A stretch of DNA of 64,000 bases from Candidatus Rokubacteria bacterium RIFCSPLOWO2_02_FULL_73_56 (GCA_001788495.1 MGCF01000006.1:2106-66105); one strand, 5' to 3'; numbered from the stretch's first letter, positions 1 to 37,895 are shown. Notes: a model not told the origin generated them from the letters alone. Numbers and translations: made by a program.

Positions 1-1514
1 CCCGCCGCGGCGAGGCGCGCGCTCAGATGCTCGGAGGCGGCGACCGAGCGGGTGCCGACGAGAATCGGTCGTCCCTGCCCGTGGAGCGCGGCGATGCGCT
101 CCACCACCGCCCCCCACCTCGCCTCCGCGTCCCGATACACTCGGTCGGCATGCCGCCGCCGGCGGAGAGGCCGGTTGGTCGGGATGGACACGACCGGCAG
201 CCGATAGACCGACCAGAGCTCGGCCGCGGTCTCACGCGCGGTCCCGGTCATGCCGCACAGCATGAGATAGCGCCGGAAGAAGCGCTGGTAGCTGATGCGC
301 GTGAGCGCGTCGTGGCGCGCGCTGAGGGGGCATTCCTCCTTGACCTCGATGAGCTGGTGCAGCCCATGCTCCCACGAGCGGTCCGACATGAGACGCCCGG
401 TGTACTCGTCGATGATCTGCACCTTCCGGTCGCGCACGATGTAGTGCAGATCGCGGTGGAACAGGTGCAGCGCCGTGAGGGCCTTGGTGACCAGCTCCTC
501 CCGCCGGCGGCGGCCGGTCCACACGCCGCCGAGCGGCGGCGCGTTCTCGTCGAGCCGAAGCATGCCCGACTCGGTCAGCCGTGCCGCACGATCCTGCTCG
601 TCGATCGCGAAGTCGAGGCCGGGCGTCAGTCGTGACGCCAGGGCGAGTGCCGTCGAATAGAGGCGGCGCTCGCTCGCGGCGCCGGCGGCGCCGCCGCCGG
701 AAATGATCAACGGCGTGCGCGCCTCGTCGATCAGCACGCTGTCGGCCTCGTCGACGATCGCGTAGCTGAGCCCGCGCAGCACCAGCCGGCCGGCGCGGGC
801 GTCGTCGCCCGCGAGGCGCTCGAGCTGGAGCAGGGTGCGGCTGGCACGCGGTCCCAGAGCCAGCCGGTCTCGCAGGTAGTCGAACGCCACTTCCTTGTTC
901 GTGACGTAGGTGACGTCGGACGCGTAGGCGGCGCGCCGGTCCGCATGCTCCATCCCGTGGACCACGACACCGACCGTGAGCCCGAGCCCCCGATAGACCG
1001 GGCCCATCCACTCGGCGTCCCGGCGCGCCAGGTAGTCGTTGACCGTGATGACGTGGACCGGAATGCCGGCGAGCGCCGCCGTGCACGCGGCGAGCGTCGC
1101 GGTCAGCGTCTTGCCCTCGCCGGTTTCCATCTCCGCGACCATGCCGCCGAGCAGCACGCGTCCACCGACCAGCTGGACGTCGAAGTGACGCTCTCCCAGG
1201 GTCCGTTCGGCGACCTCCCGCACGAGGGCGAAGGCGCGGGCGACGAGATCGTCGACGAACCGGCGCGCGCGGAGCTCTCGACCGAGCCGCTGGGCCGCCG
1301 CGAGGATCGCGTCCTCGCCGAGCGTCGCGATCCCGCCGCCGTGCCGGTCGACGAGCGCGGAGAACCGCATCCAGCGTGCCCTGCGCACCGCTCGGTGACG
1401 CAGCAGGGGCGCCACGGCCCGAGCGGCAAGACGATCGAGGGCCCCAGGCGGACGCTCGCTACGCTCCGGATAGGCGCCGAGCGGGACCTCGGGGTGGACC
1501 GCGAGCCTAGACAT
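1..1514 (-). CDS. SecA-family translocase ATPase paralog, N-terminal ~504 codons. The C-terminus lies beyond the left edge, so there is no in-window stop and the gene is absent from the ORF track.
   Basis: My own translation of the minus frame gives MSRLAVHPEV...LGERHFDVQLVGGRVLLGGMVAEMETGEGKTLTATLAACTAALAGIPVHVITVNDYLARRDAEWMGPVYRGLGLTVG...YAIVDEADSVLIDEARTPLIISG...LHGQGRPILVGTRSVAASEHLS. Walker A GEGKT lies at ~1107-1121. ATG 1514 overlaps the TAG (1507-1509) of the upstream gene (ATGTCTAG). Confidence 0.85.
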   Translation of the reverse strand, partial: MSRLAVHPEVPLGAYPERSERPPGALDRLAARAVAPLLRHRAVRRARWMRFSALVDRHGGGIATLGEDAILAAAQRLGRELRARRFVDDLVARAFALVREVAERTLGERHFDVQLVGGRVLLGGMVAEMETGEGKTLTATLAACTAALAGIPVHVITVNDYLARRDAEWMGPVYRGLGLTVGVVVHGMEHADRRAAYASDVTYVTNKEVAFDYLRDRLALGPRASRTLLQLERLAGDDARAGRLVLRGLSYAIVDEADSVLIDEARTPLIISGGGAAGAASERRLYSTALALASRLTPGLDFAIDEQDRAARLTESGMLRLDENAPPLGGVWTGRRRREELVTKALTALHLFHRDLHYIVRDRKVQIIDEYTGRLMSDRSWEHGLHQLIEVKEECPLSARHDALTRISYQRFFRRYLMLCGMTGTARETAAELWSVYRLPVVSIPTNRPLRRRRHADRVYRDAEARWGAVVERIAALHGQGRPILVGTRSVAASEHLSARLAAA

Positions 1515-3654
1515 TGAAGCGCGAGAGGAAGAGCTGCCGGACCGTCCGGTACCACTGCAGGGCGAGCGGTCTCGAGCCGTGGTCGAAGCGCACGTACGCG
1601 CGGCCGCCGACGTTGAGCCGGAGGGACCGAGCCGCAAGCTCGACGTCCACCTGAAAGACCTTCTGGGTCGCCGTGACCCCCTTCGGGTCCCGCGGATCGA
1701 CGACGATCTGTCCTCCGCCAGCGCTGCCGAGCGCCGTCGTCGGCAGCCGCTCGCTCGCGGCCGGCACGATCCGGCGGAGCGTGGCGGGAACCGTGTCGGC
1801 GAGGCTCTCGGCGAGGCGCACCTCCAGCCCCACGGTATGGAAGCGGACCAGATCGATCGCGCCCTGGGGCACGGCGGCCCGGATCGTGACCGTGGCGAGC
1901 TCGACCACGTAGGCCAGCTGCTCGCCCTTCTTGACGAAGCGACCCGGCAGGTCCTCCGGCGTCGGCACGATGAACGCGCCCGCCGTGCCGCTGCGAACCG
2001 TCAGGGCCTCGACGCGCTCCAGCGCCTGGCCCAGATCTTGCCGCGCGTACCGCAGATCCTTCTCGATGATCTCGGCCTTCACCCGATCCACCGGGCGCTG
2101 CTCGTCGTAGCGCGCCTGGAGCTCGCGGACGCGCGCCCTGAGCATCGCCACACGGACGCCCAGATCGGAATCCCTGAGCACGATCAGCGCGTCGCCTTGC
2201 CGCACCCGGGAGCCCGACGACGCGACGAACCGCTCGACGAACCCGTCGGTGCCGGCCCGGACGAGCGACTCCTCCGGAATCCAGACCACACCCTCGACGA
2301 CGCTGCGATACGGGACCGGCGCCAGCGTCACCACGCCGACGGCGGCCGCGACGGCCGCGCCCGCGACGGCGAGCGCCCGCGCGCGGTGCTTGCGGAGGCG
2401 CGGACTCGCGAAGAGAAACCGCGCCCCCTTGCCGATCGGAACGCCGATCCAGCCGACGGCCGTCAGGCCCGCGAAGAACATCGCCAGCCAGAAGTACCGG
2501 TCGGCGATGAAGGCGATGATGGCGATCACCACGAGCACCCGGTAGGCGAAGGAGGCCGCCGCGTAGGCCACGAACCACGCACGCTCGCCGGCCGTGGCCA
2601 CGGCCAGCTCGGCCTCACGCTGCCCGAACAGGTAGCGTTCGCAGAGATACCCGAGGTACTTGTTGGACCGCTGCCGCAGGTTCGGAATCTCCAGGAGGTC
2701 GCCCAGGATGTAGTAGCCGTCGTACCGCAGCAACGGGTTTGCGTTGAAGAAGATCGTGGTGACCCCCGCGATCAGGATCACGTTGTAGGTGATCACGCGG
2801 AGCAGCCCGGCCTCGACGCTCAGCCAGACGTAGAGGGCCAGGGCCGCGAGGAACAACTCCACGGTCATCCCCGCGGCGCCGACGGCGATGCGCCGCCACT
2901 TGCTGCGGAACGCCGAGGCCGACGAGGCGTCCACGTACGGCACGGGCGTCATCACGAGGACCATGACGCCCATGTCGTGGACCTCACCACCGAATGCCTT
3001 CGTCGTGTAGGCGTGACCGAGCTCGTGCAGCGCCTTGATCAGGGGGAAGAGCAGCCAGATCGTGAACAGGGCCTGCATGGAGAACAGGCGATCGAGGGTG
3101 TCCCGGGTCAGGTCCGTCCAGTACACGCCGGCGAGGACGAGTGCCGGGAGGACGACCAGGACCCAGGCGACCGCCCCCGCCGGGCCGACGAGGGGTCTGA
3201 CGAGCGGGACCGTCGCTGCGAGGAACCGCTCGGGGTCGAGCAGCCGCATGCGCCACGAGAAGAAGCTGGAGACCCGGCCGAGCCACCTCCTCCGCTGCTG
3301 GCGTTCGTACCGCTCCAGCAGGTCCGCCGCGTCGGGCGGGACATCGGACTGGAGCACGTCGCTCGCGTGGAGCTGGCTCAGGAGCTGGATGACGTCCTCC
3401 TGGGTCGGGCCGTCGTCGCCCAGGCGCTCGCAGGCCGTTTCCCAGAGCTCCTGAACCGTGCGCCGGCCATCCATGAGCCCGATCACCAGATACGCCTGCG
3501 GGGTGAAGCGGTGAAAGCGCTGGCCGGCGCGGTCCTCCAGCACGTACCACGTCTTGCCGCGGTACCGGTGGCGGTGGATGTGCGCGTGACTCCTGAGCCG
3601 CGGCTGGAGCTCGGCGACCCGGTACCAGGAGCTGCTGAAGAGCGGTTGCGTCAC
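1507..3654 (-). CDS. Tri-domain membrane protein: PqqD/RRE-like N-terminus, M50 (site-2 protease type) zinc metalloprotease and a HlyD-type periplasmic adaptor
   Basis: This is the C-terminal 715 codons of track ORF 1507..4230. The start is taken as GTG 3654, 5 nt after the upstream stop. N-terminus: WYRVAELQPRL...GKTWYVLEDRAGQRFHRFTPQAYLVIGLMDGRRTVQELW (PqqD-like). HELGH lies at 3013-3027 followed by multiple TM segments. C-terminus: GDALIVLRD...coiled coil...GAFIVPTPEDLPGRFVKKGEQLAYVV (HlyD lipoyl/barrel-like). Confidence 0.8.
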   Translation of the reverse strand: MTQPLFSSSWYRVAELQPRLRSHAHIHRHRYRGKTWYVLEDRAGQRFHRFTPQAYLVIGLMDGRRTVQELWETACERLGDDGPTQEDVIQLLSQLHASDVLQSDVPPDAADLLERYERQQRRRWLGRVSSFFSWRMRLLDPERFLAATVPLVRPLVGPAGAVAWVLVVLPALVLAGVYWTDLTRDTLDRLFSMQALFTIWLLFPLIKALHELGHAYTTKAFGGEVHDMGVMVLVMTPVPYVDASSASAFRSKWRRIAVGAAGMTVELFLAALALYVWLSVEAGLLRVITYNVILIAGVTTIFFNANPLLRYDGYYILGDLLEIPNLRQRSNKYLGYLCERYLFGQREAELAVATAGERAWFVAYAAASFAYRVLVVIAIIAFIADRYFWLAMFFAGLTAVGWIGVPIGKGARFLFASPRLRKHRARALAVAGAAVAAAVGVVTLAPVPYRSVVEGVVWIPEESLVRAGTDGFVERFVASSGSRVRQGDALIVLRDSDLGVRVAMLRARVRELQARYDEQRPVDRVKAEIIEKDLRYARQDLGQALERVEALTVRSGTAGAFIVPTPEDLPGRFVKKGEQLAYVVELATVTIRAAVPQGAIDLVRFHTVGLEVRLAESLADTVPATLRRIVPAASERLPTTALGSAGGGQIVVDPRDPKGVTATQKVFQVDVELAARSLRLNVGGRAYVRFDHGSRPLALQWYRTVRQLFLSRFNV

Positions 3655-3659
3655 GGGCG

Positions 3660-5417: not shown

Positions 5418-5576
5418 CCCGCACTGGAGACCGAGCCAGTTCCGGTAGAAGGCCTCCGGCGTCGCCGCCTCGGCGAACTCGCGCCAGAGGGCGTCGAAGG
5501 AAGGCTCCCTGGGGCCGACGCCGCTCAGCGGCGGCGGCGGCGTGATCGGACGGTGGACCTCGACCAGGGCCGGCTC

Positions 5577-5915: not shown

Positions 5916-5944
5916 ACCGTCTCCTCTCCTCCGCGCAGCGGGTC

Positions 5945-6892: not shown

Positions 6893-7187
6893 GGGGCTTC
6901 CCTTCCCTCTCGGCTCGAGTCGCCGGGGACCCTGCGCCCTCGAACCGCGCCTCGTACTCCGCGACCACCCGGCCGAGCAGCACGGCGAGCCGCTTCGCGA
7001 CCGGCGGACTCAGCACGATCCGCTGGCCGAGATCGACGACGAGCTCCTGGCGGTCGGTCCGCGAGGCGCGGCTCACGCCGAACGACAGGACGAACTCCGC
7101 GTCGCTGGTCGATACGTTGCACTGGTTCGCGTGCATCCGCCTGGCGCTCGCGTCGTCCCAGCGGACCCGGGCGGCGCCCGAGCTCAC
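6879..7187 (-). CDS. DUF3467-like small protein, copy B (divergent)
   Basis: In track ORF 6879..7235. The start is taken as GTG 7187, forming a GTGA overlap with the methyltransferase stop. Sequence: (V)SSGAARVRWDDASARRMHANQCNVSTSDAEFVLSFGVSRASRTDRQELVVDLGQRIVLSPPVAKRLAVLLGRVVAEYEARF. Confidence 0.7.
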   Translation of the reverse strand: MSSGAARVRWDDASARRMHANQCNVSTSDAEFVLSFGVSRASRTDRQELVVDLGQRIVLSPPVAKRLAVLLGRVVAEYEARFEGAGSPATRAEREGKPRGTV

Positions 7188-10252: not shown

Positions 10253-10345
10253 CGGGGCCCTCCGCGCCCGACGGGTCGGCGGGGCCGACGCCGCCGCGTC
10301 CGCTCCTACCCGCCTCCACCGCCGGGATCAGTCTCCCTCGACACG

Positions 10346-13300
10346 TCACGCTCCGCTGATCGCGGTCGCGGGGCTCGCCTCGACCAGCTCGATGTCCGGG
10401 GCCACGTCGATGCTCCAGTCCAGGAGGTGCGACTCCGCCGACTCCGGCCGACTCAGCTCACCGCGCCGCGCGGCCGTCGTCAGGCTGCTCCAGAGATCCC
10501 CCGCCGCGTCGCCGTCGAAGATCCGGAAGTCGCGCAGGGCCGCCAGGACCCCGCCGCCGCGCTGCTCGTCGCGCGTGCTCAGGCCCGCGAACGCCCCCGC
10601 CGACCAGTCGATCCCCGGCGCGGCCGGTGCGAGGCGCACCGGCCCACCGAGCGCGACCTCGACAGGCTGCGCGGAACCCGTGTCGTGCGCGACGAGCCGC
10701 TCGCCCTGCGTCAGCGTCGGCGACATCACGTCGGCCACGCCCTCGTGCGCGAATCCCATCACGTGTCCGAGCTCGTGCATGGCCACCGTCAGCAGGTCCA
10801 CGCCGCCACTGCCGCCGCCGACGATCCAGCCGTACCCTGCAGCGTCGGCGTCGAAGACGATCGAGCGGCCCACGGTGGTGGCGAGCACCGGCCCGTCGAG
10901 CTCCGCGACCGCGAACCGGAAGTCCGCCAGCGCCCCCAGCCGCGAATCCCCGTTGCCCAGCGTGTCGGTCCACTGGCGGATCGCCGTGTCGACCGCGCCG
11001 TCCAGCGTGCGGACGTCGAGCGTGCCGGTCGCCGCCGGTGCGGACGCGATGGCCGCCGCTTCCATGTTCTGGCCGCCCGACTGCGCGAAGGCGGGATCCG
11101 TCGTCTTGATCGTGACGTTGTCGAAGCTCGCCGCTCCGCCGGTCGCGAACACGCCGAATCCGCCGTCCACGACGACCGCGTTGAACGCGAAGCCGACGAC
11201 CGCCTGACCGTTCAGCGTCACGCTGACCGTCGACCCCTTCAGCGAGATGCCCAGCGTGTAGTCGGTGCCCGCGTTGATCGTCCGGGCCACCGACGCGTCG
11301 ATGACCCAGCCGTTCTTCGCCGTGTAGTGCCCGATCACGACCTTGTCCGCGGGCGCGTCGATCGCGACGAACTTGAAGTCGTCCCCCTCGTACCGGTCGA
11401 AGACGAAGCCCGCGCGGCCCTGCGTGTTGACGATCGAGGACAGCTCGAGCACCGACGATACCTGGAACCCGCCGACGCCGAGGTCGATCAGCTTCGCCGC
11501 GGTCCCGCCCGAGGGCGGCACGGCCACGTAACGGCCGCCGCTCACGGCCCACGTTCCGCTCGTCGCGCCCGTGAACAGGTCGGCGACGCCGTCGCCGAAG
11601 TCCTCGGTCGACTGGAACGTCGCGGCCGCCTGCACCACCTGCACCTGGACGTTGTCGAACGAGCCGCGCGAGTTGTCCGAGCCCACCCCGACGAGGCCCC
11701 AGTTCAGGCCGTACGACCAGCCGTCGATCACCCGCGGCGCGAACGTGTAGGTCAGCGAGTCCTTGTTGTTGACGATGATCGTGGCGTTGAGGCCGTTGAT
11801 CGACAGCATCATGTTGTAGTACGTGTCGGCCTTCGCCAGGAACGGCGTCTGCTTGTCCACGTGCCAGCCCGAGGCGTCCCGGTGGCCGGCCACCAGCTTG
11901 TTCGTGGAGATGTCGATGCCGGTGAACTTGAAGTCGGTCTTCGTGTTGTAGTCGAAGATCAGGTAGGCGTTCCCCTTCCAGCCTGCCGTCGGCTTCACCA
12001 CGTCGACCGACGCGAGCATCTCGAAGTAGGCGGGCAGCGCGTCGCCGACCTGGTACACGGCGACCGCGTCGCCGCCCAGCGACTGCGCCGACACCTGGAG
12101 CGCGCCGCCCGAGACCGTCCACGCCCCGGAGTCGGCGAAGAACGCCTGGGCCGTACCGTCGTTGAAGTTCGCCGACCGCAGCACGTCGCGCTTGCCGCCG
12201 GGAACGTTCCCCGGCTGCGGGTCCGTGGGCGCGCCGGTCTGGTCGTGCCACGCGAAGTCCTGCTGCCTGATGACGGCGAGCTCGCCCTCCGGCTCGCCGT
12301 TCCGCGTCGGGTCCGCGCCCGTGTCGGCGGCGCGCGTCGGGTCGGCGCCGTCGTTGGCCGACAGCTGGTAGAGGAATTCCGCGAGCTGCGGCTGCAGCGT
12401 GCGGCTCACCGTCGCCATGCCGAACGGCGCAAACGGCACGAGGTAGCTGTTGAACTCGCCGGCCCAGTCGATGAGCCGGTCGCCGCCCGTGTTGCCGATC
12501 AGGACGTCGCGGCCGGCTCCGCCGAAGGCGCGGTCCTCGTAGCTGGCGGCCGTGTCGGGCGCGTTGTTGAGCCCGCCCGCCGTGGTCAGCACGTCGTCGG
12601 CGTTGAGCAGGTCGTTGCCCCAGCCGCCGTAGAGGTCGTCGCGACCCGTGCCGCCGACGAGCCAGTCGTTGCCCGTGTCGCCGAAGAGCGCGTCGTTGCC
12701 GTCGGAGAAGATCCCCGTCGCGACCTCCGCGCCCTCGGTGCTCACGAAGTTGAGGAAGAACTCCTTGCCCGCGCCCGTCTTCGACAGCTCGCCCACGTCC
12801 GTCAGCAGGATCTTCCGCAGCGGATCGTACTCGTCGTACAGCGCGAACTCGCCCGCGCGCCGCGTCCGGTCGACGTGCCAGCCGTCCGGGTCGTCCGGGT
12901 TGAAGCGGAGGATGTCGCCGTCCGCGAGGTTGAGCGGATGCCCGTAGTCGGTGCGGATGACGCCGATGAGCAGGTCGGTGGCGTCGTACAGCTGCGCGTA
13001 GGACTCGACCGGTGCCTCGGCGCCGGAGATCGCGTCGTCCCCCGAGCCGCCGTGGAGCGTGTCGTTGCCGACACCGCCGTAGATGATGTCGTCCGACTTG
13101 TGCGCGACCGTCGCGGAGCCGCCGAACTCGTCCTGGGTGCCGTTGAAGGTCACGTCCACGCTGAACGGCGTGAGGTCGGCCGTCTTCTTCAGCTGGCCGC
13201 TCACGTTGATGGTCGCCGACTGCACGTTGCCCGGCGTCGTGATGAGCAGGTCGAGCTGGCCGGCGAGGCTGCCGATCCCGTACAGCGGCTCCGCCGTGCC

Positions 13301-25300: not shown

Positions 25301-28300
25301 GATCTTCCGGAGCGACGAGTTGCCGCCCAGGATCTCCGCGGTGGTCGTGCTGTCGTTGTTCGTGTCGGCCACGGCCGCCGCGCCCGAGAGCACGAAGCCG
25401 ATGCTGCCCGAGACCGTGTCGGCGAAGTTGTCGTCCGTGCCGTGGGCGATGATGACGAGGGTGCCGCCGGTGAGCTTGACGTTGTTGCCCACGAAAGCGT
25501 GCGTCACCGTGTCCGACGACGCGATGCCCGTCGCGATACCGCCCGCGACGAGGCCAACCGTGTTGCTGCTGGAGTCCGCCAGCTGCCGGCTGTCGTTCTT
25601 CGCCTCGACCTTGGTCTGGCCGGTGATGGTCAGCGTCGAGTTGTCGCCGATGGAGGCCGAGACCTCGCCGTTGTCGGTCGCCTCGCTGATGGTGGCGTCG
25701 AGGCCGACGAGGCCGCCGGCCGAGCCGGTCGTCTTCGCCTTGGCCGTGTAGCCGCTGGCGCCAACCTGCTGCTTGCCGGTGACGCTCAGGCTACCCGCGA
25801 CGATCGTCCCGGCCACGACTGCCGTGACCACGGGCGAGGCCTCGACGTCGGCGAGCGAGAAGCCGGCGCCGAGGACGCCGACGGCGATGCCGAACGTCTC
25901 GGCGCGCGCGAACGGCGTGGCGGTCGCGGCGACGGACACCCCGCCCGTCACCGTGATGTGCCCGCCGGTGCCGATCGTCGCCTCGATCTCCGGCGTGACG
26001 TCCACGAAGGCGAAGTTGCCGGCCATCGCGCCGATGCCGCCCGCCAGCGCCTCCGTCTGGGCGTAGGCCGTAACCGTCGAGGCCGCGCTCACCGACACGC
26101 TGCCGACCGTTCCACTCTGCCCGATCTCGACGTTGCTGCCGATGAACGCGCGCGTGTCCGTCGCCGAGCCGTTGTCGACGTCGATGATCACGAACGCGGC
26201 ACCGGCGCCGACGGCGCCGATGCTGAGCTGCCCGGCGTGGCCGTGGAGGTTCTGGTCGCCGACGGCGGACACGAGCACGCTGCCCGCGCGGATGATGGTC
26301 GCGTTGTTGAGGATGCCGGCCGACACGGTGCTCGCGTCGCTGATGGCGACGACGGCGGCGCCCAGGCCGACGAAGCCGACGGAGCCGGACAGGGAGGTGA
26401 CGACGATGTCGTCGTCGAGGATGCCCTTCACGTTGATGTGACCGGCGCTGCCCGCCTTGAGCGTGCCCCCCGCCTCGGCCTCGGCGTTCACGCCCACGTT
26501 CACCACGGCGATCGACGCGCCGACGCCGACGAACCCGCCCGCGACGCCGCCGGTGATGATCTCGATGTCGACGTCCTCGTTGGCCGTGACCTCGATGTTG
26601 TGGCCGGCCTCCACGTTGGTGGTGCCGCCCTGGATCCGCGCCACCGTGCCGGTGGACGGCGCCGCGCCGGTCACGGCATCCTGGATGGCCGTCGTCGAGG
26701 GCGCGGAGCCGGACAGGCTGGTCCCCGCGCTCTGCGTGCCCGAGTCCACGCGGTTCTGGCTGGTCTTGCTGTTGCCGCTGCCGTCGCCCGAGAACCCGCC
26801 GAGGAGGCCGGAGACCTGGCCGCTGGACTTCCCGCCCTGGTCGGCGGCGTCGTCCGTGGCCGAGCCGTTGTCGCCCGCGGTCGCGGACGCGTGCGTGCCC
26901 TCGTCGTTCTGGTAGTCCGAGGAGATCGGATTGCCGACCGACCACACGGAGACGGCGGCGGTGAGGCCGACGAGGCCGCCGGCGCCGCTGAGCGTGAAGC
27001 CGTCCACCTCGTGGATGCCGACCGCGTTGACCTCGACGTCGTTCTCGGCGTCGACGACCGCGCCGCTCCGGATCTCGGCCAGCGTGTCGTTGTTGAGGCT
27101 GCCGACGTCGACGGCGCCACCGACCCCGACCACGCCGCCGGCCACGCCGACGACGAACGTCGACAGGTGCGCCTGGTTGGAGGCCCCGACGTAGACGCCC
27201 TGATCGGCGTCACCGCTGAGCCCGGCGCCCTGGTTGATGCTCGCGTTGCTGCCGATGAAGGCGGTGGTGTCGGAGTCGACGAGGGTGACCGCCACCGCGC
27301 CGGACACGCCGACGAAGCCCACGCCGGCCGCGATCACGAGGTGGAGGACCTGTTCCTTCGACTGCGCCTGGACGATGACGCCGTGCGCCTCGGCCAGCGT
27401 GTCGGGGTCGCCCCCGCCGATCTCGCCGTTGAGGATGCCGCCGAAGCCGCTGCCGCTGCCGTCGGCGTCGACGTCGGCGCCGTTGGCGATGAACGCCGAG
27501 GTGTCCTTGTTGATGACCATCACGCCCACGGACGCGCCGATGCCGACGAAGCCGCCCGCGATGCCGCCGGACACCATCGTGATGTCGGTATTGTCCGTGG
27601 CGATGACCGCGACGTCGCCGCCCGCGACGACGGTGGCGTTGCCGATGGTGGCCGTGGTGGTGTTGTTGATGGTCAGCACGTCGACCGCGCCGCCGATGCC
27701 GACCACGCCGCCGCCCAGGCCGAAGGCGACCTGCACGACGTGCTCGTCCGCGTGCGCCTCGACCTCGACGTCGTTCATGGCGTGCACGACGGCGCCCGCG
27801 CCGATGGAGGCGAGCGTGGTGTTGCTGAGCACGGTGACGTCGACGGAGGGCGCCACGCCCACCACGCCCACGCCGAGCGAGCCGGCCACGGCCAGGTGGT
27901 AGAAGTCGTTGCCGGCCGCCACGCTGACCGACTGCGCGGCGTCTGCGCCGCCGCCGAGGTTCACCTGCGCGTTGTCGCCGATGTAGGCGTTCGTGTTCGT
28001 GCTGATGACGTTGACGCCGGCGGAGATGGCGACCCCCGCCGTGCCGCCCGCGACGCTGATCGTGAACGTCGCGATGTCGTCCCGGTTCGTGGCGGCGAGC
28101 GCCACACCGCGCCGGGACTGCTGGCCGGGGCTCACCGAGCGGGCGCCGGAGAGCGACGGATCCGTCGCCTCCGAGTTGCCGTCGTTGTTCGAGTCCATGT
28201 TGCTCATCGTCGGCGTGTGGACTTCGCCCTGGGCCTTCAGTGACGTCGAATCGGGGCTGCTCGAGACCGAATCGGCGTGGATGCCCTCGCCGCCGGCGTT

Positions 28301-31300
28301 GTTCGGGTCGAACGTCGGGGCGGCGTTGTTGAACGCCTCGCCAAAGCTGCCGTCGTTGACGAGCACGGCGCTGGTCGTGCCGTCGCCCGAAACCCACGCG
28401 CCCGCGCCGATGAAGGCCTCGGTGGTCTTGCTGACGACGCTCACCGCGCCGGAGGCGGCGACGCCGGCGGTGCCGGACACCGCGAGCACGCCGACGATCT
28501 TGTCCATCTCGGTCTGGTCGTCGGCGGTGATGACGACGTTGCCGCCCGCGTGCACGTGGCCGGCGCCGGCGGAGGCCGGGCCGCCCGTGGGATCGTCGCC
28601 GATCCACGCCCGCGTCTGGTTCGTGACGATGTGCACCGACGCGTCGAGGGCCACCGACGCCGTGCCGCTGAGGCTCATGCCCGCCGCGACCGAGGTGACG
28701 TCCTCGCTCGCGACCGCGCTGACCTCGATGTCGCCCTCGACCTCCGCCGTGACGTTGGAGTCGATGTAGGCGAGCGTGTCCTTGGTGATGGTCGCGACGT
28801 CGGCACCGAGGCCCACGCCGGCCGTGCCGCCGGCCGCGAGGTTGCCGGCCACGGAGACGATGTCCGTGTCGTCCTGGGCGTGGACCGACAGGTCGGGCTT
28901 GCCCGAGGCGCCGTCGTTCACGGTGATGTTCGCGCTGCGGCCGATGAACGCGTGCGTGTGCTCCGTGAGGACGTTCACGACGGCCGAGCCCGCGACCCCC
29001 GCGGTGCTGGCGCCGCCGCCCGCGGCGGCGATCGTGATCAGGTCCTCGCTCGAGGTGGCGGCGATCGTGATGCCGGTCGCGCCGTCGGAGGTCACGACCG
29101 CGTTGTCGCCGATGTAGGCCTCGACCGTGTCGGTGTGGACGAGGACGCTGGCCGCCGCGCCGACGCCGGCCGAGCCCGCGCTCGCGCCGATCGACCCGGC
29201 GACCATCGTCGCGTCGAGGTGGCCGTCGGCCGTCACGTCGATGTCGCCCGCGTGCACGGTCGCGCCGCCGATGTATGCCCGCGTCGTCGTGGTGAGCACC
29301 TGGACCGTGCCGGAGCCGGCGACGCCGACGGAGTTCCCGATGCCGGCGTTCGCGGCGATCGAGACGATGTCCTCCGACGAGTCGGCGTCGACGGTGAGCG
29401 CGCCGGCGGAGTCGACGGTCGCGCCGGTCGTGATGTAGGCCTCGGTGTCCTTGGAGATCACGCTGACTTCGAGCCCGGCGCCGACGCCGGTGGAATCGGT
29501 CGAGATGCCGAGCGCGCCCGCGGCGTTCGTCATGTCGATCGTGCTGGACGCGTGCAGGCCCACCGACTGGCCGCTCGGGGTGATGCTGCCGTCCTGGTTG
29601 ACGGCCGCGGTCCCGGCGATGTAGGCGTGGGTGTTGACCGTGTAGATGGTGATGTCGGCCGCGCCCGCGATCCCGACGCCGCCGTTGCTGCCGCCGCCCG
29701 CCAGCGCCGCCGAGCTGATCGCGATTGCCGGGTCGTCGACGACGGAGTTGTCCGGCAGGTCGAGCGTCGGCGGGGGCGCCAGCGTCGTCGTGGCGTCGAC
29801 CGTCAGCGCGCCCGCGGCGTCCGCGGCGCCCGCGATGAACGCGTCCGTGTCGCTGGTCACCACGGTCACGGCCACGGCCGCGCCGACCGACGTCCCGCTC
29901 GAGAAGCCGACGCCCGCGGCGATCGTCTGGAGGATCAGCTGGTTCTCGGCCGTGACGTGCAGGGCGCCCGTCGACAGCAGGTGCGCCGTGTTCGCGACCG
30001 AGGCCTCCGTGGTGAACGTCACCACGTTGACGGCGACCGAGCCTGCGATCCCGATGTCGCCCGTGCCGCCGGCCGCCGCAGCGCCCCAGACGATGAACTC
30101 GTTCTTGTTGCTGCCGGTCGTGACGGCCTCGACCGTGATCCCGTCGCCGTGGATGACCGAGCCGCCCAGCACGCGCGCCTTGTTGTTGATGCTCGCGACG
30201 TTCACGCCGACCGCCGCGCCGATCATGTTCGAGTCCTCGAGCGTGACCGCGAGCCCGAGGGCCTTCGAGGTCTCGTCCACCTCGGCCTGCGCGCTGACCT
30301 TCACGGCGCCGGTCGTCGTGATGTCGGCGCCGCTGGCGACCTCCGCGATGTTGTCGAGGCCGATGTAGCTCACCGCCACCGCGGCCGCGACGCCGACGCC
30401 GCTCGAGCCGCCGCCCGACTCGCCGCCGGCCGTGCCGCTCGCGGCGCTGGTCTGCCCGCTCGCCGACGGCGTCGACTGCGAGCCGGCGTTGCCCGTGACG
30501 TTCGTGGTGTTCGCGGCGCCGCTCGACTTCGAGTCCGCGCTCTGACCGCCCTCCGACTGCTTCTTCTCGCCGCCCGCGCTCGCGTTCACCTCGAGCGTGC
30601 TCGACATCTTGGACTTGGCCTGGACCGTGAAGCTACCGCTCGCGTTGTCCACGCTGCGAGCCAGCGTCGCCGTGCTGCTGTCGGTGACGACGACCACGCC
30701 GACGGAGGCGCCGATCGCCGCATCCGAGCCTTCGGCCTCGGAGCTGACCGTCGTGCCGAAGGTGCCCTGGTGGTCGGTGCTGATCTGGGAGGCGCCGCCG
30801 CCGAGATGGACGACGCCGCCGGTGCCGACCCGCGCGGTCGTGTGGTTCTCGGAGATGACGACCGCCACGGCGGCGCCGATGCCGGTGTCGCCCTTCGCGC
30901 CGTTCTTCGCCTCGGTCGTGAGGTCGTCCTTGCCGGTCGCCTGGGCCGACAGGTGGTCGATGCCGGTGCCCGTCACCGCGACGCCGTTCTCGAGCTCGGC
31001 CGTGGTGTCGTGCAGGACCAGGTTCAGGGCGAACGAGGCGCCGATACCCGCGCTGTCGGCCCCGCCCTCGCCGTCGCTGTCCTCGTCGGGCAGCGCCTTG
31101 GCGGTGTCCTCGGCCACCGAGGTGGCGGTGAGCTGGATCCCGCCGACTCCGGTCCCGCCGTCGCCGCCGTCCGCCAGGTTCAGGGTCGCGCCCGTCTCGA
31201 TGGACGCCGTCGTGTCGACGTCCGAGTAGTTGATGGCGACCGAGGCCGCGATGCTGATGTCGTCGGCGCCGGCGCCCGAGGTCGCCTGGGCGGAGAACGA

Positions 31301-34285
31301 GTGCTTGTCGGTCACCTCGGAGACGACGTCCGTCATCTCGGCCTTGACGCTGACGCCGTCGGCCGTGATCGTCGCGTCGCCGATGTGGGCGGAGTTCGTC
31401 ACGAGGGCGACGTTGATGGCCACCGCGGCCGCGATGCCCGTGCCGGCGTTGGCGACCGTCCCGTCGGCGGTCGCGCTCGCGTCCACGTTCTCGGAGGCCT
31501 GGACCGTCAGGGCGCCGTCGGAGTCGATCGTGACGCCGTCCGCGATCTGGGCGCGCGCCGTCGCCTTGGCGACGTTCACGGCGATCCCCGCGGCCACGCT
31601 CACGTTGTCGTTGTCCTGGTTCTGGGCCTTGGCCTTGTCGTTGCTGCTGTCCGCGCCCGAGGCGTGGCTGCCGCTGCCGCGGTTGGCGCTGGCCTGGGTG
31701 TTGCCGAAGTCCCGCTGCTGATTGCTCTTCTGCTGGGCGTTCTTCCCGCTGGAGTCGCTGCCCTCGCCCTCCCCGCCTTCCGCGCTCGCCTTGGCCTCGG
31801 CCAGGCTCTTCGAGCGCCCCTTGGCCTTGAACCGTGTCGCCCCGCCGGTGGTGACGCTGCGCGTCGTCTCGGACACGACCGTGTCCTGCGCCCAGCCGAA
31901 GGCGATCGCCACGCCGACCGCGACGTCGGTGCCGACGGCCTTGCCCTCGGCCTTCGTGCTGACGTCGCTCGTGCCGCTGGCGTCCGCGAGCAGCTCGCCC
32001 CCGACCACGAGCGCCGGCTGCAGCGCCGTGCCCTGGATCTGGGTCGCCGTGTCGAGGGTCACGACCGAGACGGCGACGACCGGCGCGATCGCGTTCCCGC
32101 CGGCTCCGCCGCCCTTGGCCTCGGTCTCGATCGTGTGGGTCGCCGTCGCCGTGAGGTGCACGTCGTCGGCGTCCGTGAAGACGACGCCGGAGCCGATCGT
32201 CGCCTTCGTGTCGTTGTCGGCGACGGTGAGCGCCACCGAGGCGCCGACGCCCGTGCTCTTGCCGGCGTCGTCGTCGCCGTCGTCGTCGTCGATGCTCGCC
32301 TCGGCCCTCGCCGTGATGTGGGTCGTCGACTCCGCCAGCAGCGTCAGGCTGCTGCCGTTGAGGTCGACCGTCGCCGCGGGGTCGACCAGCGCGTAGACGT
32401 TCGCGATCGTGACGTTGATCGCCAGCGCCCCGGCGAGCGCAAGGCCCGACGACCCCCCGCTCGCCCCGGACTTCGCGGTCACGTCGAAGTGGCTGTCCGG
32501 CATCACCGCGTGCACGGTGATCCCGTTCGGCCCGTCGAGGCTCGGGCTGCCCGTGAGCCACGCCTTGACCTCGACGACGTGCACGCCGATGCCGACGCCG
32601 AGGCCCACGCCCTCGGGGTTGTTGTCGGTCGTCGAGCCGTCGCCGATCGTGGCGATGTCGTAGGTGCCGCTCGCGGTGAGGCCGATCGTCGTGTCCGAAG
32701 TGATCGTCGCGTCGTCGATCTCGGCCCACGTGTGGCCGGTGATGACCGACACCGCGACGGTCGCGGCGAAGTTGACGTTCCCCTCGCCCGTCGCGGCCCG
32801 ATCGCTCGTGTCGCTGTCGTCGTTCGGGTCCTTGAGCCGCTCCTTGGACGTCTGCGAGCCGTCGTCGGCGTGGTCCTTGGCGCCCTTGGGCGACGCCTTC
32901 GCCGTCGTGTCGACGGTCCGGCTGGTGGTGGCCGCGATCGCGACCGAGCTTGCGTCGATCGAGGTCGTCGCGTCGCTGATCACGACTTCCGTGTCGCCGA
33001 AGACCACGCTCACGGCGACGATGGCGCCCGCGGTGCTCGAGTTGCCGAGCGTGCCGTCGGCCGTCGTCGTGAGGTGGACGGTGTTCGTCGCGTCGATCGT
33101 CGCCGCCCCCGTCGCCACCAGGTCCGAGTCGTTGTGGACGGTGACCGTGGCCGAGCTGCTGACGACCGCGACCGCGAACGAGGCGTCCGTCGTGGTTTCG
33201 GTGTTGTCCTTGCTGCCGTCGGTCGGATCGGGCTTCCGCGCGAGCGTGAGGCTCGGCATGCTCGACGTGGCGTCGATGTCGATCGTGCCGGTCGCGGCGA
33301 GGTCCGCGTTGTCGAGGTCCACGGTGGCGGACGAGAACAGCAGCAGCTCGCTGAAGTTGACCTTCCCGTCGAGCTTGCTGGCGGTGTTGATCGTCACCGT
33401 TTCCTGGCTCAGGGCCAGGATCGTGATGTCGTGACCGCTGATCGTCGAGTTCGTGACCGTGACCTCGGCGGACGGCAGCTGCAGGAAGTCGGCCGAGTCG
33501 GCGTCGCCCGTGACGGTGCTGGGCTTCCCCGCGTTGAGCGTCACGTCGTGCGCGCTCAGCGTCGTGCCGGTCATGTGGATCGTCGAGTCGGACTCGACGG
33601 TGAGATCCTTGCCGCCGGTGAGCGTGAACGTGCTGGCGGCGACCTCGATGTCGCTCGAGCTGTGGAACCGGAGGTTGAAGCCGACGCTCGTCGGGCCGGT
33701 GCCCTGCAGGCGGAAGAGATCGTTGCCGATGCCCGGGATGACGCCCTCGAGGAACGAGATGTCCTTGCCGCCCACGAAGTCGATGTCGAGGAGCCCGCCG
33801 TCGCCGCTCACGAAGGTCGCGAGCGCGGGCAGGTCGAACGAGTCGAGATCGATGCGGATCGTGTCGCCCCGGAGGTCGCTGTTGGTGTCCCCACCGTCGC
33901 GCTGGATGACGACCTGGTGCTCCCCGGCGTTGTCCAGCACGGCGGAGGCGAGGACGTTCCCGAGGTTCCCCGTCTCGCGCAGCTCCAGGATCGGGTCGGA
34001 GCCGCTCAAGTCCGCGACCAGCGTCATGTCGGCGACGAGGCTGAGCGTCGGGTACGTGAGGTTCGCGGACAGCAAGAGCCGCGGCTCCAGCGTCTCGAGC
34101 GCGAACGCCTGGCGCTGCCGCGCGAGGTCCGCGAGACGCGCCCACCGGCGGCCGGCACGGCGCCGCTGGGCGCCCTGCGCGTAGATCGATTGCATGAGGC
34201 GATGGAAAAAGAGCTCGGCGATCGTGCGGACACGCGAAGCGCGCCGACGCGGACGGGACGGACGGGCGTCGAGCAGCGTGGTCAT
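10346..34285 (-). CDS. Giant (7979 aa) secreted or surface protein. It carries an LEPR-XLL-type N-terminus, beta-solenoid repeats, Calx-beta-like domains, RTX repeats, LamG-like domains and a C-terminal metzincin domain.
   Basis: A single uninterrupted track ORF with AAGGGAG 7 nt upstream of the ATG. Composition and motifs are listed in the sub-features below. All long plus-strand ORFs across it are Arg/Gly/Asp/Val-rich shadow frames. Confidence 0.9.
   Translation of the reverse strand: [7979 protein letters not shown]
10745..10777 (-). other. Metzincin zinc-binding motif [11 protein letters not shown], followed by a possible Met-turn (DVMSP), 132 codons before the giant gene's stop
   Basis: [29 protein letters not shown]. 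This is the HExxHxxGxxH signature. Coordinates were derived by codon arithmetic from the track stop. Confidence 0.75.
11110..12180 (-). other. Two LamG/concanavalin-like domains within the giant gene (approximate bounds)
   Basis: [25 protein letters not shown]...[39 protein letters not shown]...GSFDNVQVQ, then [26 protein letters not shown]...[38 protein letters not shown]...ASFDNVTIK. Confidence 0.6.
12480..15070 (-). repeat. Haemolysin-type Ca-binding (RTX, GGxGxD nonapeptide) repeat region within the giant gene (approximate bounds)
   Basis: [135 protein letters not shown]. Confidence 0.75.
15500..16700 (-). other. Calx-beta-like domains within the giant gene (approximate bounds)
   Basis: [23 protein letters not shown]...[59 protein letters not shown]...[43 protein letters not shown]...[18 protein letters not shown]. 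Confidence 0.55.
20290..23960 (-). repeat. Scattered H-G-L-x-x-G-D...Y...YYV modules within the giant gene (approximate bounds)
   Basis: [19 protein letters not shown]...[32 protein letters not shown]...[37 protein letters not shown]...[34 protein letters not shown]. Confidence 0.5.
24700..33400 (-). repeat. Degenerate protein-level beta-solenoid-type repeats within the giant gene (approximate bounds)
   Basis: There are dozens of units such as [68 protein letters not shown] and [27 protein letters not shown]. The consensus is roughly G.(G/A)(V/G).(A/G)(S/A).(A/V)V.V....T.A.IG... with a period of roughly 55-60 aa. Confidence 0.6.
34064..34090 (-). other. LEPRLLLSA motif (codons 66-74) closing an Arg-rich, non-hydrophobic N-terminal region of the giant protein
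   Basis: [74 protein letters not shown]. From memory this matches the NCBI family model named LEPR-XLL domain, which is found at the N-termini of very large proteins. Confidence 0.7.
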
Positions 34286-34628
34286 TTGAGGCTCCCTTGG
34301 AGAGCGAGCAGAGGCAGGGCGATGAGACGAGAAACCCGCGGATGCGAGTGCCAGCGCCTCCCGGAAATCACCTGGGCGGTTCTCCTACGGGCTAGCGAGC
34401 GACGCCACGGGTTGTGGCGGCGCCACTCTCGGACCAAACCTGTGCGTTGTCAAGGGCCGTTCTGCTGGCACCCGGGGCATTTCCGGAAGGCCCGCCGGCC
34501 CAGGTCAGGAGGCGTGCCTCCGGGTCACCGCCACGCCCCTCCCCCGATGACGCGAATTCCGGGCGGTGCGATCATGGCCCTGGCTCCCCGGTCATGGCAA
34601 GACGACAGGCCGTCCAGGCGCCGGCCCG

Positions 34629-35645
34629 ATGACGGCGGCAGACGCGCGGCGGGTGGTGCTCGTCGCTCCACCGTACGGCTGGCTGCGCGGCGAAGTGCCG
34701 AGACGCTGGCTCTCGGGACGCGGCGTCGACGCCGTGCTGCTCGCCCATGCCTCGCCGCAGTTCGGGGTCCCCGGCGCGATGGACGCCATCGAAGCCCTGG
34801 CGCGGAGCGCCCCTGCGACGTGGCACTTCTACCCCTTCCCGCACGACGAGTATCTGATCGACACGCTCCAGGCGCGCGGCCACCGGGTGCTCGTCGGCCT
34901 CGACGACGACTACTGGCACCCGAGCCCCTGGCATCCCGTCGGACCCCGGCTGGACAGCCTCCCAGACCTCGAGGCGCTGCTCGCCGCCGCCGACGGCCTG
35001 GTCGTCACGACGGAGCCGCTCGCCGGGATCGTCGCGCGCTTCAACGCCAACGTCGCCGTCGTGCCGAACGCCCTCGACCTCGAGGCGATGCCGGCGGCCC
35101 GCCCGCCACGGGAGGGACGGGCCAGGCGGGTTGGATGGAGCGGCTGGCCGGGACACCGGGGCGACACGGCCCTCCTCGAGGCGCCGCTGCGCGCGCTGCT
35201 CGCGGAGGACCCGGAGCTCACCTTCGTCGTGGCCGGCGAGCTACCGGCCTGGGCGGTGGGCGAGGCCCGGGTGGAGCGCGATACGCGCCTGCTCCCTCCG
35301 CTGGCACACTACCGGCGGCTCGCGCGGCTGGAGATCGATCTGTTCGTCGCGCCGCTGGTCGAGCACCCGTGGAACGAGGCGCGGAGCCTGCTGAAGGCCC
35401 TCGAGGCGGCCGCGCTGGGACTCCCGATGATCGTGTCCGACGTGGGCCCGTATCGCGCCGTGCCCGCGGATGTCGCGCTGAAGGTTCCGAACACCGCGGC
35501 GGCCTGGCGCGCGGCCCTCGAGCGGCTGATCGCCGACGCCGCGCTGCGGAGGGCGCTCGCCGGGCGCGCGCTTGCATGGCTCCGAGAACACCACACGATC
35601 GACACCACCGGTCCGCTCTGGCGGGCGGCGCTCGCCGCCGTGTGA
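34629..35645 (+). CDS. GT-B fold glycosyltransferase (family 1/4-like)
   Basis: In track ORF 34566..35645. The start is taken at MTAADARRVVLVAPPYG. The C-terminal half reads RVGWSGWPGHRGD...FVAPLVEHPWNEARSLLKALEAAALGLPMIVSDVGPY, which looks like the nucleotide-sugar binding region. Confidence 0.65.
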   Translation: MTAADARRVVLVAPPYGWLRGEVPRRWLSGRGVDAVLLAHASPQFGVPGAMDAIEALARSAPATWHFYPFPHDEYLIDTLQARGHRVLVGLDDDYWHPSPWHPVGPRLDSLPDLEALLAAADGLVVTTEPLAGIVARFNANVAVVPNALDLEAMPAARPPREGRARRVGWSGWPGHRGDTALLEAPLRALLAEDPELTFVVAGELPAWAVGEARVERDTRLLPPLAHYRRLARLEIDLFVAPLVEHPWNEARSLLKALEAAALGLPMIVSDVGPYRAVPADVALKVPNTAAAWRAALERLIADAALRRALAGRALAWLREHHTIDTTGPLWRAALAAV

Positions 35646-35676
35646 CGGCCCGCGTTGGGGGGCCGGCGCGCGCGGC

Positions 35677-35988
35677 TCAGCCCGGCAGCGCCCCGAACCG
35701 CGCCTCGTACTCCCTGAGGATGTTGGCGAGCAGCGCGGAAAGCCGCTTGGCCGCCATGGGGCTCAGAATGATCCGGTCCGTGAGCTGCACCGGGATCTCT
35801 TTCTGGGCGCTGTGCCAGGCCTGGTTGATCCCGAACAGGAGGACGACCTCCTCGCGTGTGCTCGCGACGTTGCACACGTTCGCGTAGGAGCTCGTCATGT
35901 TCGAGTCGTCCCACTTGATCTGAGGCTGGGCCTGCGCCTGCCCGGCCGGCCGCGGTGACGGGGTCTCTGCGCTCCGTTCGTTGGCCAT
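35677..35988 (-). CDS. DUF3467-like small protein, copy D (closest to copy A)
   Basis: Track ORF of 103 aa: MANERSAETPSPRPAGQAQAQPQIKWDDSNMTSSYANVCNVASTREEVVLLFGINQAWHSAQKEIPVQLTDRIILSPMAAKRLSALLANILREYEARFGALPG. Confidence 0.8.
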   Translation of the reverse strand: MANERSAETPSPRPAGQAQAQPQIKWDDSNMTSSYANVCNVASTREEVVLLFGINQAWHSAQKEIPVQLTDRIILSPMAAKRLSALLANILREYEARFGALPG

Positions 35989-37811: not shown

Positions 37812-37895
37812 CGTCCCAAGCGTAGCCTCCGCGGCCGGCCCGCGCAAAGGGCTTGAAATCGGCGGGCGGGCTGACGCACCCTCTGGGGGGACGCC

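Follow-up and report, generated by a model that had tools for sequence, protein, structure and literature searches.

Giant LEPR-XLL proteins and a conserved SecA/M50/HlyD gene cassette without an ABC exporter: a candidate secretion system of diderm bacteria

Background

A secondary SecA_DEAD locus that includes genes for a GAF-HlyD protein, an M50-HlyD protein and a HlyD/biotin-lipoyl protein was described by Kamneva, Poudel and Ward (PLoS One 2015; PMC4452313), who found an outer-membrane efflux protein (OEP) encoded with it sometimes and an ATP-binding cassette (ABC) transporter never, and who gave META1p2402-2399 of Methylobacterium extorquens AM1 as an example. In their proposal SecA_DEAD would serve as the ATPase, and the M50 protein would be the membrane component and possibly the pore; they called the biological role "completely unknown" and named no substrate, and the terms PqqD, DUF3467, SapC and RTX are absent from their paper (PMC4452313). 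Here we analyze the left 36 kb of a stretch of 64,000 nucleotides from Candidatus Rokubacteria bacterium RIFCSPLOWO2_02_FULL_73_56 (GCA_001788495.1, MGCF01000006.1:2106-66105; the whole stretch is referred to below as the window), where genes of this kind adjoin a gene for a 7,979-residue, surface-type protein with an N-terminal LEPR-XLL motif. We propose, at a probability of roughly 0.55, that this region encodes a system, similar to type I secretion and powered by SecA, that specifically exports LEPR-XLL giants and processes their leaders; its steps are set out conditionally below. An original prediction made from the window had taken the system to be undescribed; that does not hold for the core cassette, which was reported in 2015 with the same division of labor (PMC4452313).

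Compared with the loci of Kamneva et al., the four core genes stand in the same order, the SecA protein combines SecA_DEAD and SecA_PP_bind without a wing/scaffold, and an ABC transporter is missing, whereas the loci examined here add the Methylomirabilota/Rokubacteria and several further phyla. The classical type I secretion system (T1SS; HlyB/HlyD/TolC, LapEBC) resembles the cassette in its membrane-fusion proteins, in the TolC-type channel and the SapC accessory gene present at some loci, and in a giant, cysteine-free RTX cargo encoded beside the machinery. The cassette differs in having no ABC transporter, a SecA derivative as the ATPase, one adaptor fused to an M50 domain and, as its conserved targeting feature, an N-terminal basic leader with LEPR-XLL instead of a C-terminal signal. 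The accessory Sec system (SecA2/SecY2) likewise has a second SecA that serves very large surface proteins of repetitive sequence whose genes lie close by, and the window, too, has a glycosyltransferase (GT); however, SecY2 and Asp are missing from the conserved neighbors of the cassette, the GT is not conserved, SecA2 keeps the wing/scaffold that the cassette SecA lacks, and the hosts considered here are diderm and have HlyD/TolC parts. The leader peptidases of ribosomally synthesized and post-translationally modified peptides (RiPPs; YydH/LiaK and daptide MpaP-type) are HExxH intramembrane metalloproteases with an N-terminal PqqD-like domain, as is the cassette protease, but the latter is fused to a periplasmic adaptor and has a proposed substrate of 4,000-12,700 residues. 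SecA modules without wing/scaffold have also been found inside giant proteins of Omnitrophota and Actinobacteria, with a suggested role in export (West-Roberts et al. 2023, bioRxiv 10.1101/2023.11.21.568195). In both cases a scaffold- and wing-less motor composed of SecA_DEAD and the preprotein cross-linking domain (PPXD) is tied to giant proteins; there it is part of the giant polypeptide, with HlyD and M50 unmentioned, whereas here it is a separate protein of 665 residues in a five-gene cassette. Finally, a 2026 preprint on 'Chlorochromatium aggregatum' describes SapC and TolC genes beside giants with LktA-like repeats, as well as a horizontally acquired secA; these genes may represent the same system. 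The searchable literature yielded no follow-up to the 2015 study and nothing relevant on DUF3467, LEPR-XLL or SapC with RTX.

Conservation of the cassette

With one genome scanned per species, a relative of the M50 fusion was detected in at least 544 species-level genomes, and the 80 best loci were analyzed together with flanks of 10 kb. These loci span Methylomirabilota/Rokubacteria, Nitrospirota, Myxococcota, Desulfobacterota, Acidobacteriota, Bacteroidota and the alpha-, beta- and gammaproteobacteria, cultured strains included. The core cassette comprises GAF-HlyD, the PqqD-M50-HlyD fusion, a short SecA and a small HlyD protein. GAF-HlyD is encoded directly upstream of the M50 fusion at 78 of the 80 loci and the short SecA directly downstream of it at 77, and the small HlyD gene comes next after the short SecA at 55. 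The co-occurrence in other genomes that the prediction presupposed is found for the core genes, and taken as a whole the core cassette is syntenic in all 80 of the genomes sampled. Apart from the core genes and antisense shadow open reading frames (ORFs), the recurrent neighbors are DUF3467 genes, giant ORFs, SapC, OEP and a 2-oxoglutarate-Fe(II) oxygenase; SecY-like, SecY2 and Asp proteins do not appear among the recurrent neighbor clusters identified in the 80 loci.

The presence of HlyD-type adaptors without an ABC transporter, a premise of the prediction, was confirmed both in the related loci and on the contig itself. None of the 80 loci has a T1SS-type ABC exporter in the 10 kb on either side of the cassette, and importer-type small ABC ATPases, present at six of them, are distant from the cassette. 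The contig of the window was recovered from metagenome assemblies by an exact look-up of GAF-HlyD, and 10 kb to the left of the window were inspected. A gene for a 274-residue HlyD-type protein (L001:15898-16722), with a signal-like segment at its N-terminus, overlaps the SecA stop codon by 4 nt. Beyond it there is an opposite-strand ORF (L001:17318-18115) with a faint match to LAGLIDADG_3, followed by indolepyruvate oxidoreductase genes. These 10 kb contain neither an ABC transporter nor a TolC/OEP gene, so that no T1SS ABC/TolC pair immediately follows the left edge. A Liv-type ABC importer (38-45 kb) and unrelated genes occupy the right half of the window, with no HlyB-type ABC protein and no OEP gene. 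The extension also corrects two counts: the HlyD-type adaptors number three instead of two, the third being the 274-residue protein, and 11 of the twelve chained genes that had been counted lie in the window, the twelfth being this same gene just past its left edge.

A TolC/OEP gene is found in or beside the cassette at nine of the 80 loci and at two of six plasmid loci (see below); in Methylosinus sp. C49 and Thalassospira marina it is the last gene of the set. SapC-family genes (PF07277, 243 bits) occur in or beside the cassette at 14 of the 80 loci, among them L033, L042, L060, L078, L081, L082 and L085. The name SapC goes back to an operon for type I secretion of an S-layer. Individual loci have SapC alone, DUF3467 alone or both, and on the Alisedimentitalea plasmid SapC (L090:1058-1855) is divergent from the giant gene.

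Giant proteins as the conserved partner

The pairing of a giant LEPR-XLL protein with the SecA-paralog, M50 and HlyD genes receives strong support from comparative genomics. ORFs of at least 1,500 residues were counted at the 38 fully flanked loci, all such ORFs being cut by the 10-kb flank, and one adjoins the cassette at 29 of them, mostly directly upstream and on the same strand. With the C-terminal ~1,400 residues of the window's giant, tblastn matched cassette-adjacent giants from Acidobacteriota, Desulfobacterota and alpha- and gammaproteobacteria at no fewer than 13 loci, at 35-57% identity over 1,100-1,800 residues. A tblastn search with the N-terminal 300 residues matched only 1 of the 80 loci, a figure that is misleading because the N-termini of upstream giants fall outside the 10-kb flanks; the ORF maps, the C-terminal tblastn search and the plasmid records show, on the contrary, conservation of the giant as a partner.

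Where the N-termini of the giants are visible, 17-66 mostly basic residues precede the motif (L/I/M/F)E(P/x)RxLL(S/A/N)A. The strict LEPR-XLL pattern occurs 14 times in the six reading frames of the 80 loci, and in 12 of these cases a large or truncated ORF adjoining the cassette begins 18-105 residues before the motif. The sole visible large ORF without the motif, at L086, is downstream. The cassette is present in 13 plasmid records of cultured bacteria, of which seven were inspected and six were informative; the Rhizobium johnstonii record was left out, as its match lies at the record start. All six have a complete giant immediately upstream of the cassette, and each giant carries the motif. 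They measure 4,033, at least 8,148, 8,847, 10,518, 10,603 and 12,737 residues, and two bear the NCBI name 'LEPR-XLL domain-containing protein'. Altogether, 19 N-termini bear the motif (12 loci, the window and six plasmid giants), and the cassette is statistically linked to LEPR-XLL giants and to their motif. On the Alisedimentitalea scapharcae plasmid (L090:725-1055), the in-frame sequence before the annotated methionine reads ...KRRRFIRNSRASESRGKQAVVEQLEPRLLLAADFTIS; judging from this reading, the ~8,148-residue 'calcium-binding protein' probably starts further upstream than annotated.

The giant of the window is acidic and free of cysteine, with 12.9% glycine and 9% aspartate. Its basic leader of 65 residues (16 Arg+Lys against 4 Asp+Glu) is followed by LEPRLLLSA (nt 34064..34090), and the LEPR-XLL family NF012209 ('LEPR-8K') is matched at residues 61-81, TLEPRLLLSA, with 25.2 bits (cutoff 17). 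No hydrophobic stretch of the signal-peptide type was found at the N-terminus, which agrees with the predicted Arg-rich, basic LEPR-XLL N-terminus in place of a signal peptide. The remainder of the protein includes LktA_tand_53 repeats of 53 residues (286 bits), 23 RTX-like nonapeptides and Pfam matches to HemolysinCabind (76.5 bits) and Peptidase_M10 (27 bits). The RTX block is followed by ~700 residues that include a metzincin-like domain; the giant carries HELGHVMGFAHE, and its metzincin-type HExxHxxGxxH motif lies at nt 10745..10777. In the C-terminal region two segments look LamG-like from their sequence, and conservation among related giants does not extend to the last ~95 residues (tblastn).

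The truncated SecA paralog

The SecA paralog has a full length of ~665 residues, the first 504 of which are encoded inside the window. The gene caller starts it at 1370 (617 residues), but the ATG at 1514, which overlaps the stop codon of the M50 fusion and gives 665 residues, is favored because homologues align from residue 1 and show the same overlap. Alignment to solved SecA structures is confined to residues 19-601 of Bacillus subtilis SecA, so that the paralog consists of nucleotide-binding domain (NBD) 1, the PPXD, NBD2 and the first part of the scaffold helix. The ATPase motifs are intact (METGEGKT, VDEADSVLIDEARTPLIISG, TNMAGRGTDI and GRQGDPG) and the PPXD is complete (91 bits), whereas Pfam gives no match to SecA_SW, the wing/scaffold family. 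In extent the protein approximates the N68 fragment of Escherichia coli SecA, without the wing, the two-helix finger and the C-terminal tail. The paralog cannot be the housekeeping copy, since the wing/scaffold domain is absent and the cassette is plasmid-borne in 13 records.

The motor gene varies between loci. At L026, L045, L073 and L080 the SecA-like gene is just 29-39% identical and matches in part, and in some lineages the motor may be divergent or encoded elsewhere. NCBI names for the short SecA range from 'prepilin peptidase' and 'DEAD/DEAH box helicase' to 'translocase' and 'preprotein translocase subunit SecA' (examples of the inconsistent naming are L088:22222-24138, L091:22186-24147, L092:22144-24126 and L095:22139-24124), and those for the M50 fusion include 'PqqD family protein', 'peptidase M50', 'biotin/lipoyl-binding protein' and 'hypothetical protein'. 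Because of such naming, keyword searches miss the system.

The M50 fusion and the HlyD adaptors

The M50 fusion is predicted to consist of a cytoplasmic PqqD-like domain of the RiPP recognition element (RRE) type, an M50-type metalloprotease with ~7 transmembrane (TM) segments (residues 151-445, hydropathy) and a periplasmic HlyD-type adaptor. Pfam recognizes PqqD (24.7 bits, cutoff 23.4) and HlyD_3 (31.5 bits) in it, and among NCBIfam models it matches daptide_HExxH with 164 bits (cutoff 300) and YydH/LiaK with 35 bits (cutoff 225). These scores lie far below the equivalog cutoffs of the RiPP leader peptidases, and there is no conserved small precursor gene at the loci besides DUF3467. The motifs HELGH and NPLLRYDG are invariant across 14 M50-fusion sequences of 57-100% identity. 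More than 6,400 relatives are present in the database, with the length of ~715 residues kept and a PF02163 match precomputed for many of them; the closest named ones belong to Candidatus Rokuibacteriota/Methylomirabilota.

For GAF-HlyD, which also matches the NCBIfam model RND_mfp with 99.6 bits, the predicted layout is a cytoplasmic GAF sensor domain, one TM segment (residues 319-337, hydropathy) and a periplasmic adaptor domain. With cytoplasmic N-terminal domains and these numbers of TM segments, the HlyD domains of both proteins would be periplasmic.

DUF3467 proteins and accessory genes

A DUF3467 gene lies directly upstream of GAF-HlyD, on the same strand, at 28 of the 73 loci with enough flank and at five of the six plasmid loci; it is absent from that position at the other 45 of the 73. 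In the window this position is held by DUF3467-A, to which DUF3467-B and DUF3467-D are 34% and 67% identical. The AlphaFold2 model of DUF3467-A (pLDDT 88) shows a three-stranded sheet and a long C-terminal helix. The family is conserved over its full length apart from a short variable C-terminal tail, and neither a signal peptide nor a TM segment is found in it. A resemblance to the chaperone SecB was considered and rejected: DUF3467 has no sequence match in the PDB and not even a weak Pfam match to SecB, and hhalign against E. coli SecB (its sequence entered by hand) returned a probability of 0.2%. One relative of DUF3467-A (P0121, 194 residues) contains two DUF3467 domains in tandem, and others of 300-400 residues (P0263, P0352 and P0356) are fused to X1-like domains.

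The fusion of DUF3467-C to the domain that we call X1 is a conserved family, with P0356 70% and P0352 38% identical over the full length; its X1 part (the C-terminal 270 residues) has no significant family match in Pfam. DUF3467-B is translationally coupled to the genes for an O-methyltransferase (OMT) and a radical SAM (rSAM) enzyme. The CxxxCxxC motif of the rSAM enzyme occupies residues 18-25, and its best NCBIfam match, HxsC4 (97 bits), is far under the cutoff. By analogy, the distribution of the DUF3467 copies may be likened to that of recognition or escort domains spread among enzymes that act on one substrate.

The maturation genes (rSAM, OMT, X1 and X2) had been taken for a part of the system, but they prove to be an uncommon add-on, present at 2-4 of the 80 loci. 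An rSAM gene lies near the cassette at four (L007, L052, L060 and L063) and an OMT gene at two; X1 homologues occur at L024, L052, L060 and L063, and X2 homologues adjoin the X1 and rSAM genes at the last three of these. X1, X2 and rSAM stand together beside the cassette in a deltaproteobacterial metagenome-assembled genome (MAG), Labrenzia alba and Methylobacterium aquaticum. X1 and X2 share no BLASTP similarity, and the idea that they are paralogs was dropped. Their strand-like motifs (YLEFGG, YLGFKWD, LYFYDY and SIYFG) may be reminiscent of ABBA-type prenyltransferases.

Nor is the GT a conserved partner, since it was found at one locus of the 80, L007, the closest relative, from a Rokuibacteriota MAG. 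There a pair formed by GT on the minus strand and DUF3467 on the plus strand lies directly upstream of GAF-HlyD, whereas in the window GT and DUF3467-D lie upstream of the giant gene; the comparison suggests a duplication, or the insertion of a block made up of the giant and the maturation genes. The window is an elaborated variant of the core system, in a further phylum.

Proposed mechanism and alternative explanations

The gene content and synteny, the catalytic motifs, the predicted topology, the lack of an ABC exporter and the link to the cargo are observations, and the adjacent gene set probably exports the 7,979-residue giant. The binding partners, direction of transport, inner-membrane conduit and cleavage site that we infer are as follows. 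The cysteine-free RTX giant would be made in the cytoplasm with a leader of 40-65 basic residues ending in LEPR-x-LL-S/A-A, which would be bound by the cytoplasmic PqqD-like domain of the 715-residue fusion. The truncated SecA, composed of the ATPase core and the preprotein clamp and devoid of the SecY-docking parts, would feed the unfolded chain into a membrane assembly to which the M50 domain would contribute ~7 TM segments and GAF-HlyD one. A duct built from the periplasmic domains of all three HlyD-type proteins would lead on to a TolC-type outer-membrane channel, whose gene presumably belongs to the operon in some genomes and lies outside it in others. The M50 active site would remove or trim the leader, and the GAF domain may make export responsive to a small ligand. 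DUF3467 would accompany the cargo in the cytoplasm as a small escort or adaptor, and the additional copies in the window, fused to X1 or coupled to rSAM and OMT, may hand the same cargo to modifying enzymes. We also entertain, at somewhat less than even odds, the broader idea of a distinct and widespread diderm secretion pathway in which SecA would take the place of the ABC protein, an RRE-like domain would read the leader, M50 would process it and DUF3467 proteins would serve as escorts, with LEPR-XLL giants as its first substrates.

Several points weigh against the proposed export system. No M50 or site-2 protease is known to act as a protein-conducting channel, and no other candidate pore is encoded in the cassette. 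RTX repeats are a hallmark of type I substrates with a C-terminal signal, so export of the giant by a canonical T1SS from another part of the genome is conceivable. The two-helix finger and the scaffold, which in canonical SecA couple ATP hydrolysis to movement of the chain, are missing from the paralog, and at two loci (L096, on Thalassospira marina pCSC3H3, and L066) no SecA is encoded between the M50 fusion and the small HlyD protein. Peptidase_M50 scores 22.1 bits in Pfam, below its cutoff of 27.2, and PqqD barely exceeds its own; nine of the 38 fully flanked loci are without an adjacent giant. In M. extorquens AM1 the operon, with the exception of the GAF gene, is barely expressed in exponential culture (PMC4452313).

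The main rival, unlikely in our estimate although it deserves serious attention, holds that the giant leaves the cell C-terminus first through an ordinary, unlinked T1SS, and that the cassette is a device for N-terminal processing, retention or regulated release. Its role would then be like that of LapG/LapD for LapA-type adhesins: M50 would cut near LEPR-XLL under control of GAF, while unfolding or extraction of the leader would fall to the SecA-like ATPase. The RTX repeats and the cysteine-free, acidic, Gly/Asp-rich composition are indeed typical of T1SS cargo, the motif that correlates with the cassette is N-terminal, where the retention modules of giant adhesins sit, a GAF sensor is at hand, and M50 enzymes are proteases rather than channels. 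Yet T1SS genes of giant adhesins usually adjoin the cargo gene, and here no T1SS ABC exporter occurs within 10 kb at 80 loci. Three membrane-fusion-type proteins and, in several taxa, an in-operon TolC are also hard to fit to a mere protease, and the RTX block of the giant is followed by ~700 residues with a metzincin-like domain and not by a short C-terminal signal.

That the cassette instead matures and exports a small RiPP- or bacteriocin-like peptide, with DUF3467 or a short ORF as the precursor and the giant as an unrelated neighbor, seems to us quite improbable. The PqqD domain would bind the peptide leader, M50 would cleave in the manner of YydH and the HlyD proteins would carry the product out of the cell, an idea favored by the nearest curated relatives of the protease being RiPP leader peptidases, by the PqqD domain, rSAM enzyme and methyltransferase of the window and by the small conserved DUF3467 gene that often precedes the cassette. 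DUF3467, however, is a compact domain in the AlphaFold2 model whose short variable tail leaves little room for a core peptide in a protein otherwise conserved throughout, and it is lacking at most of the loci with enough flank; the scarcity of rSAM and OMT genes argues in the same direction. Moreover, a peptide needs no SecA motor with a full preprotein clamp, and the LEPR-XLL giants beside the cassette at about three quarters of the loci would be left unexplained. Even less credible, and the least probable of the explanations considered, is a device for efflux of small molecules or lipids or for envelope maintenance, in which the SecA-like protein would be no more than the ATPase and the giants would be carried on the same mobile islands. 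NCBI does name the adaptors 'efflux RND transporter periplasmic adaptor subunit' (RND, resistance-nodulation-division), the locus is often on plasmids, and horizontal transfer was inferred by Kamneva et al. (PMC4452313). Against this, the SecA paralog keeps a full-length PPXD, the M50 fusion keeps a peptide-binding PqqD-type domain along with an intact protease site, and hitch-hiking fails to explain one and the same N-terminal motif across phyla.

Gene layout of the window

Genes were called from third-codon-position G+C content (GC3) in frame analysis together with Pfam and NCBIfam matches, and the junctions were read from the ORF coordinates and the sequence; positions are those of the window (Table 1). 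The G+C content of the window is ~72%, and long spurious ORFs are plentiful as a consequence. Examples are a 2,536-residue plus-strand ORF antisense to the giant gene and other long plus-strand shadow ORFs that overlap it (28277..35887 and others inside 10346..34285, up to 3,649 residues); their codon-position GC pattern is wrong, which marks them as artefacts of the high G+C content.

Table 1. Genes and protein regions in the left 36 kb of the window
Feature	Position	Strand	Evidence
SecA paralog, cut by the window edge	1..1514	-	SecA_DEAD 336 bits, SecA_PP_bind 91 bits, P-loop_SecA
PqqD + Peptidase_M50 + HlyD fusion, 715 aa	1507..3654	-	Pfam, NCBIfam
GAF-HlyD, 585 aa	3660..5417	-	Pfam GAF 40.9, HlyD_3 64.8, HlyD_D23 55.1 bits
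DUF3467-A, 112 aa	5577..5915	-	Pfam DUF3467 77 bits
Radical SAM enzyme, 315 aa	5945..6892	-	Pfam Radical_SAM 70 bits; CNLACVHC motif
DUF3467-B, 102 aa	6879..7187	-	Pfam DUF3467 56.7 bits
O-methyltransferase, 363 aa	7184..8275	-	Pfam Methyltransf_2 90 bits + dimerisation domain
X2, 290 aa	8262..9134	-	No match to any Pfam or NCBIfam family
DUF3467-C fused to X1, 373 aa	9131..10252	-	DUF3467 48 bits, residues 6-85
Giant protein, 7,979 aa	10346..34285	-	ORF; GC3 0.97
Conserved C-terminal region of the giant, residues ~6413-7884	10634..15049	-	tblastn, motifs
Leader and LEPR-XLL of the giant	34061..34285	-	Translation; alignment with seven other cassette-linked giants
GT1-family glycosyltransferase	34566..35645	+	Pfam Glyco_trans_1_4 35.8 bits
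DUF3467-D, 103 aa	35677..35988	-	Pfam DUF3467 80.9 bits

The domain calls of the original prediction were borne out for every named gene, and the short or overlapping junctions are exactly those claimed. The junction between the M50 fusion and SecA reads ATGTCTAG, GAF-HlyD and the M50 fusion are separated by 5 nt, DUF3467-B/rSAM and X2/OMT each overlap by 14 nt, and the OMT/DUF3467-B and X1/X2 junctions are GTGA and ATGA, respectively. A single chain interrupted only by the GT gene had been proposed. From the giant gene leftwards this stands, as the third-position GC pattern has minus-strand genes running unbroken from 34285 to the left edge; DUF3467-D, on the other hand, is separated by the opposite-strand GT, so that the possible single transcription unit extends from the giant gene leftwards. 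Promoter and terminator scans, otherwise uninformative, gave no intergenic terminators.

A 228-residue minus-strand ORF with a match to the Secretin domain (37161..37847; 43 bits) lies upstream of DUF3467-D at a distance of 1.2 kb; its neighbors are an alcohol dehydrogenase gene and a small ORF on the plus strand. It is far below the normal length of a secretin.

Significance

Relative to the 2015 study, what is new is the cargo class, LEPR-XLL giants, and the N-terminal leader motif, both seemingly unreported in the searchable literature. The same goes for the DUF3467 genes that often precede the cassette. Cultured strains with the whole system, several of them carrying it on plasmids, have been identified, and the 2015 prediction has thereby become testable; cultured carriers include Methylosinus sp. 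C49 (pMSC49a), Mesorhizobium ciceri R30, Pseudosulfitobacter sp. DSM 107133, Labrenzia alba and M. extorquens AM1. Apart from the classical type I adhesin systems, little is understood of how proteins of 8,000-12,000 residues cross two membranes, and the proposed system, if it operates as outlined, would represent a new energizing principle for secretion through the whole envelope. It would account, too, for the LEPR-XLL annotation that many very large bacterial proteins bear, and would constitute a sorting system made up of a signal and its cognate machine, comparable to sortase and LPXTG or to exosortase and PEP-CTERM.

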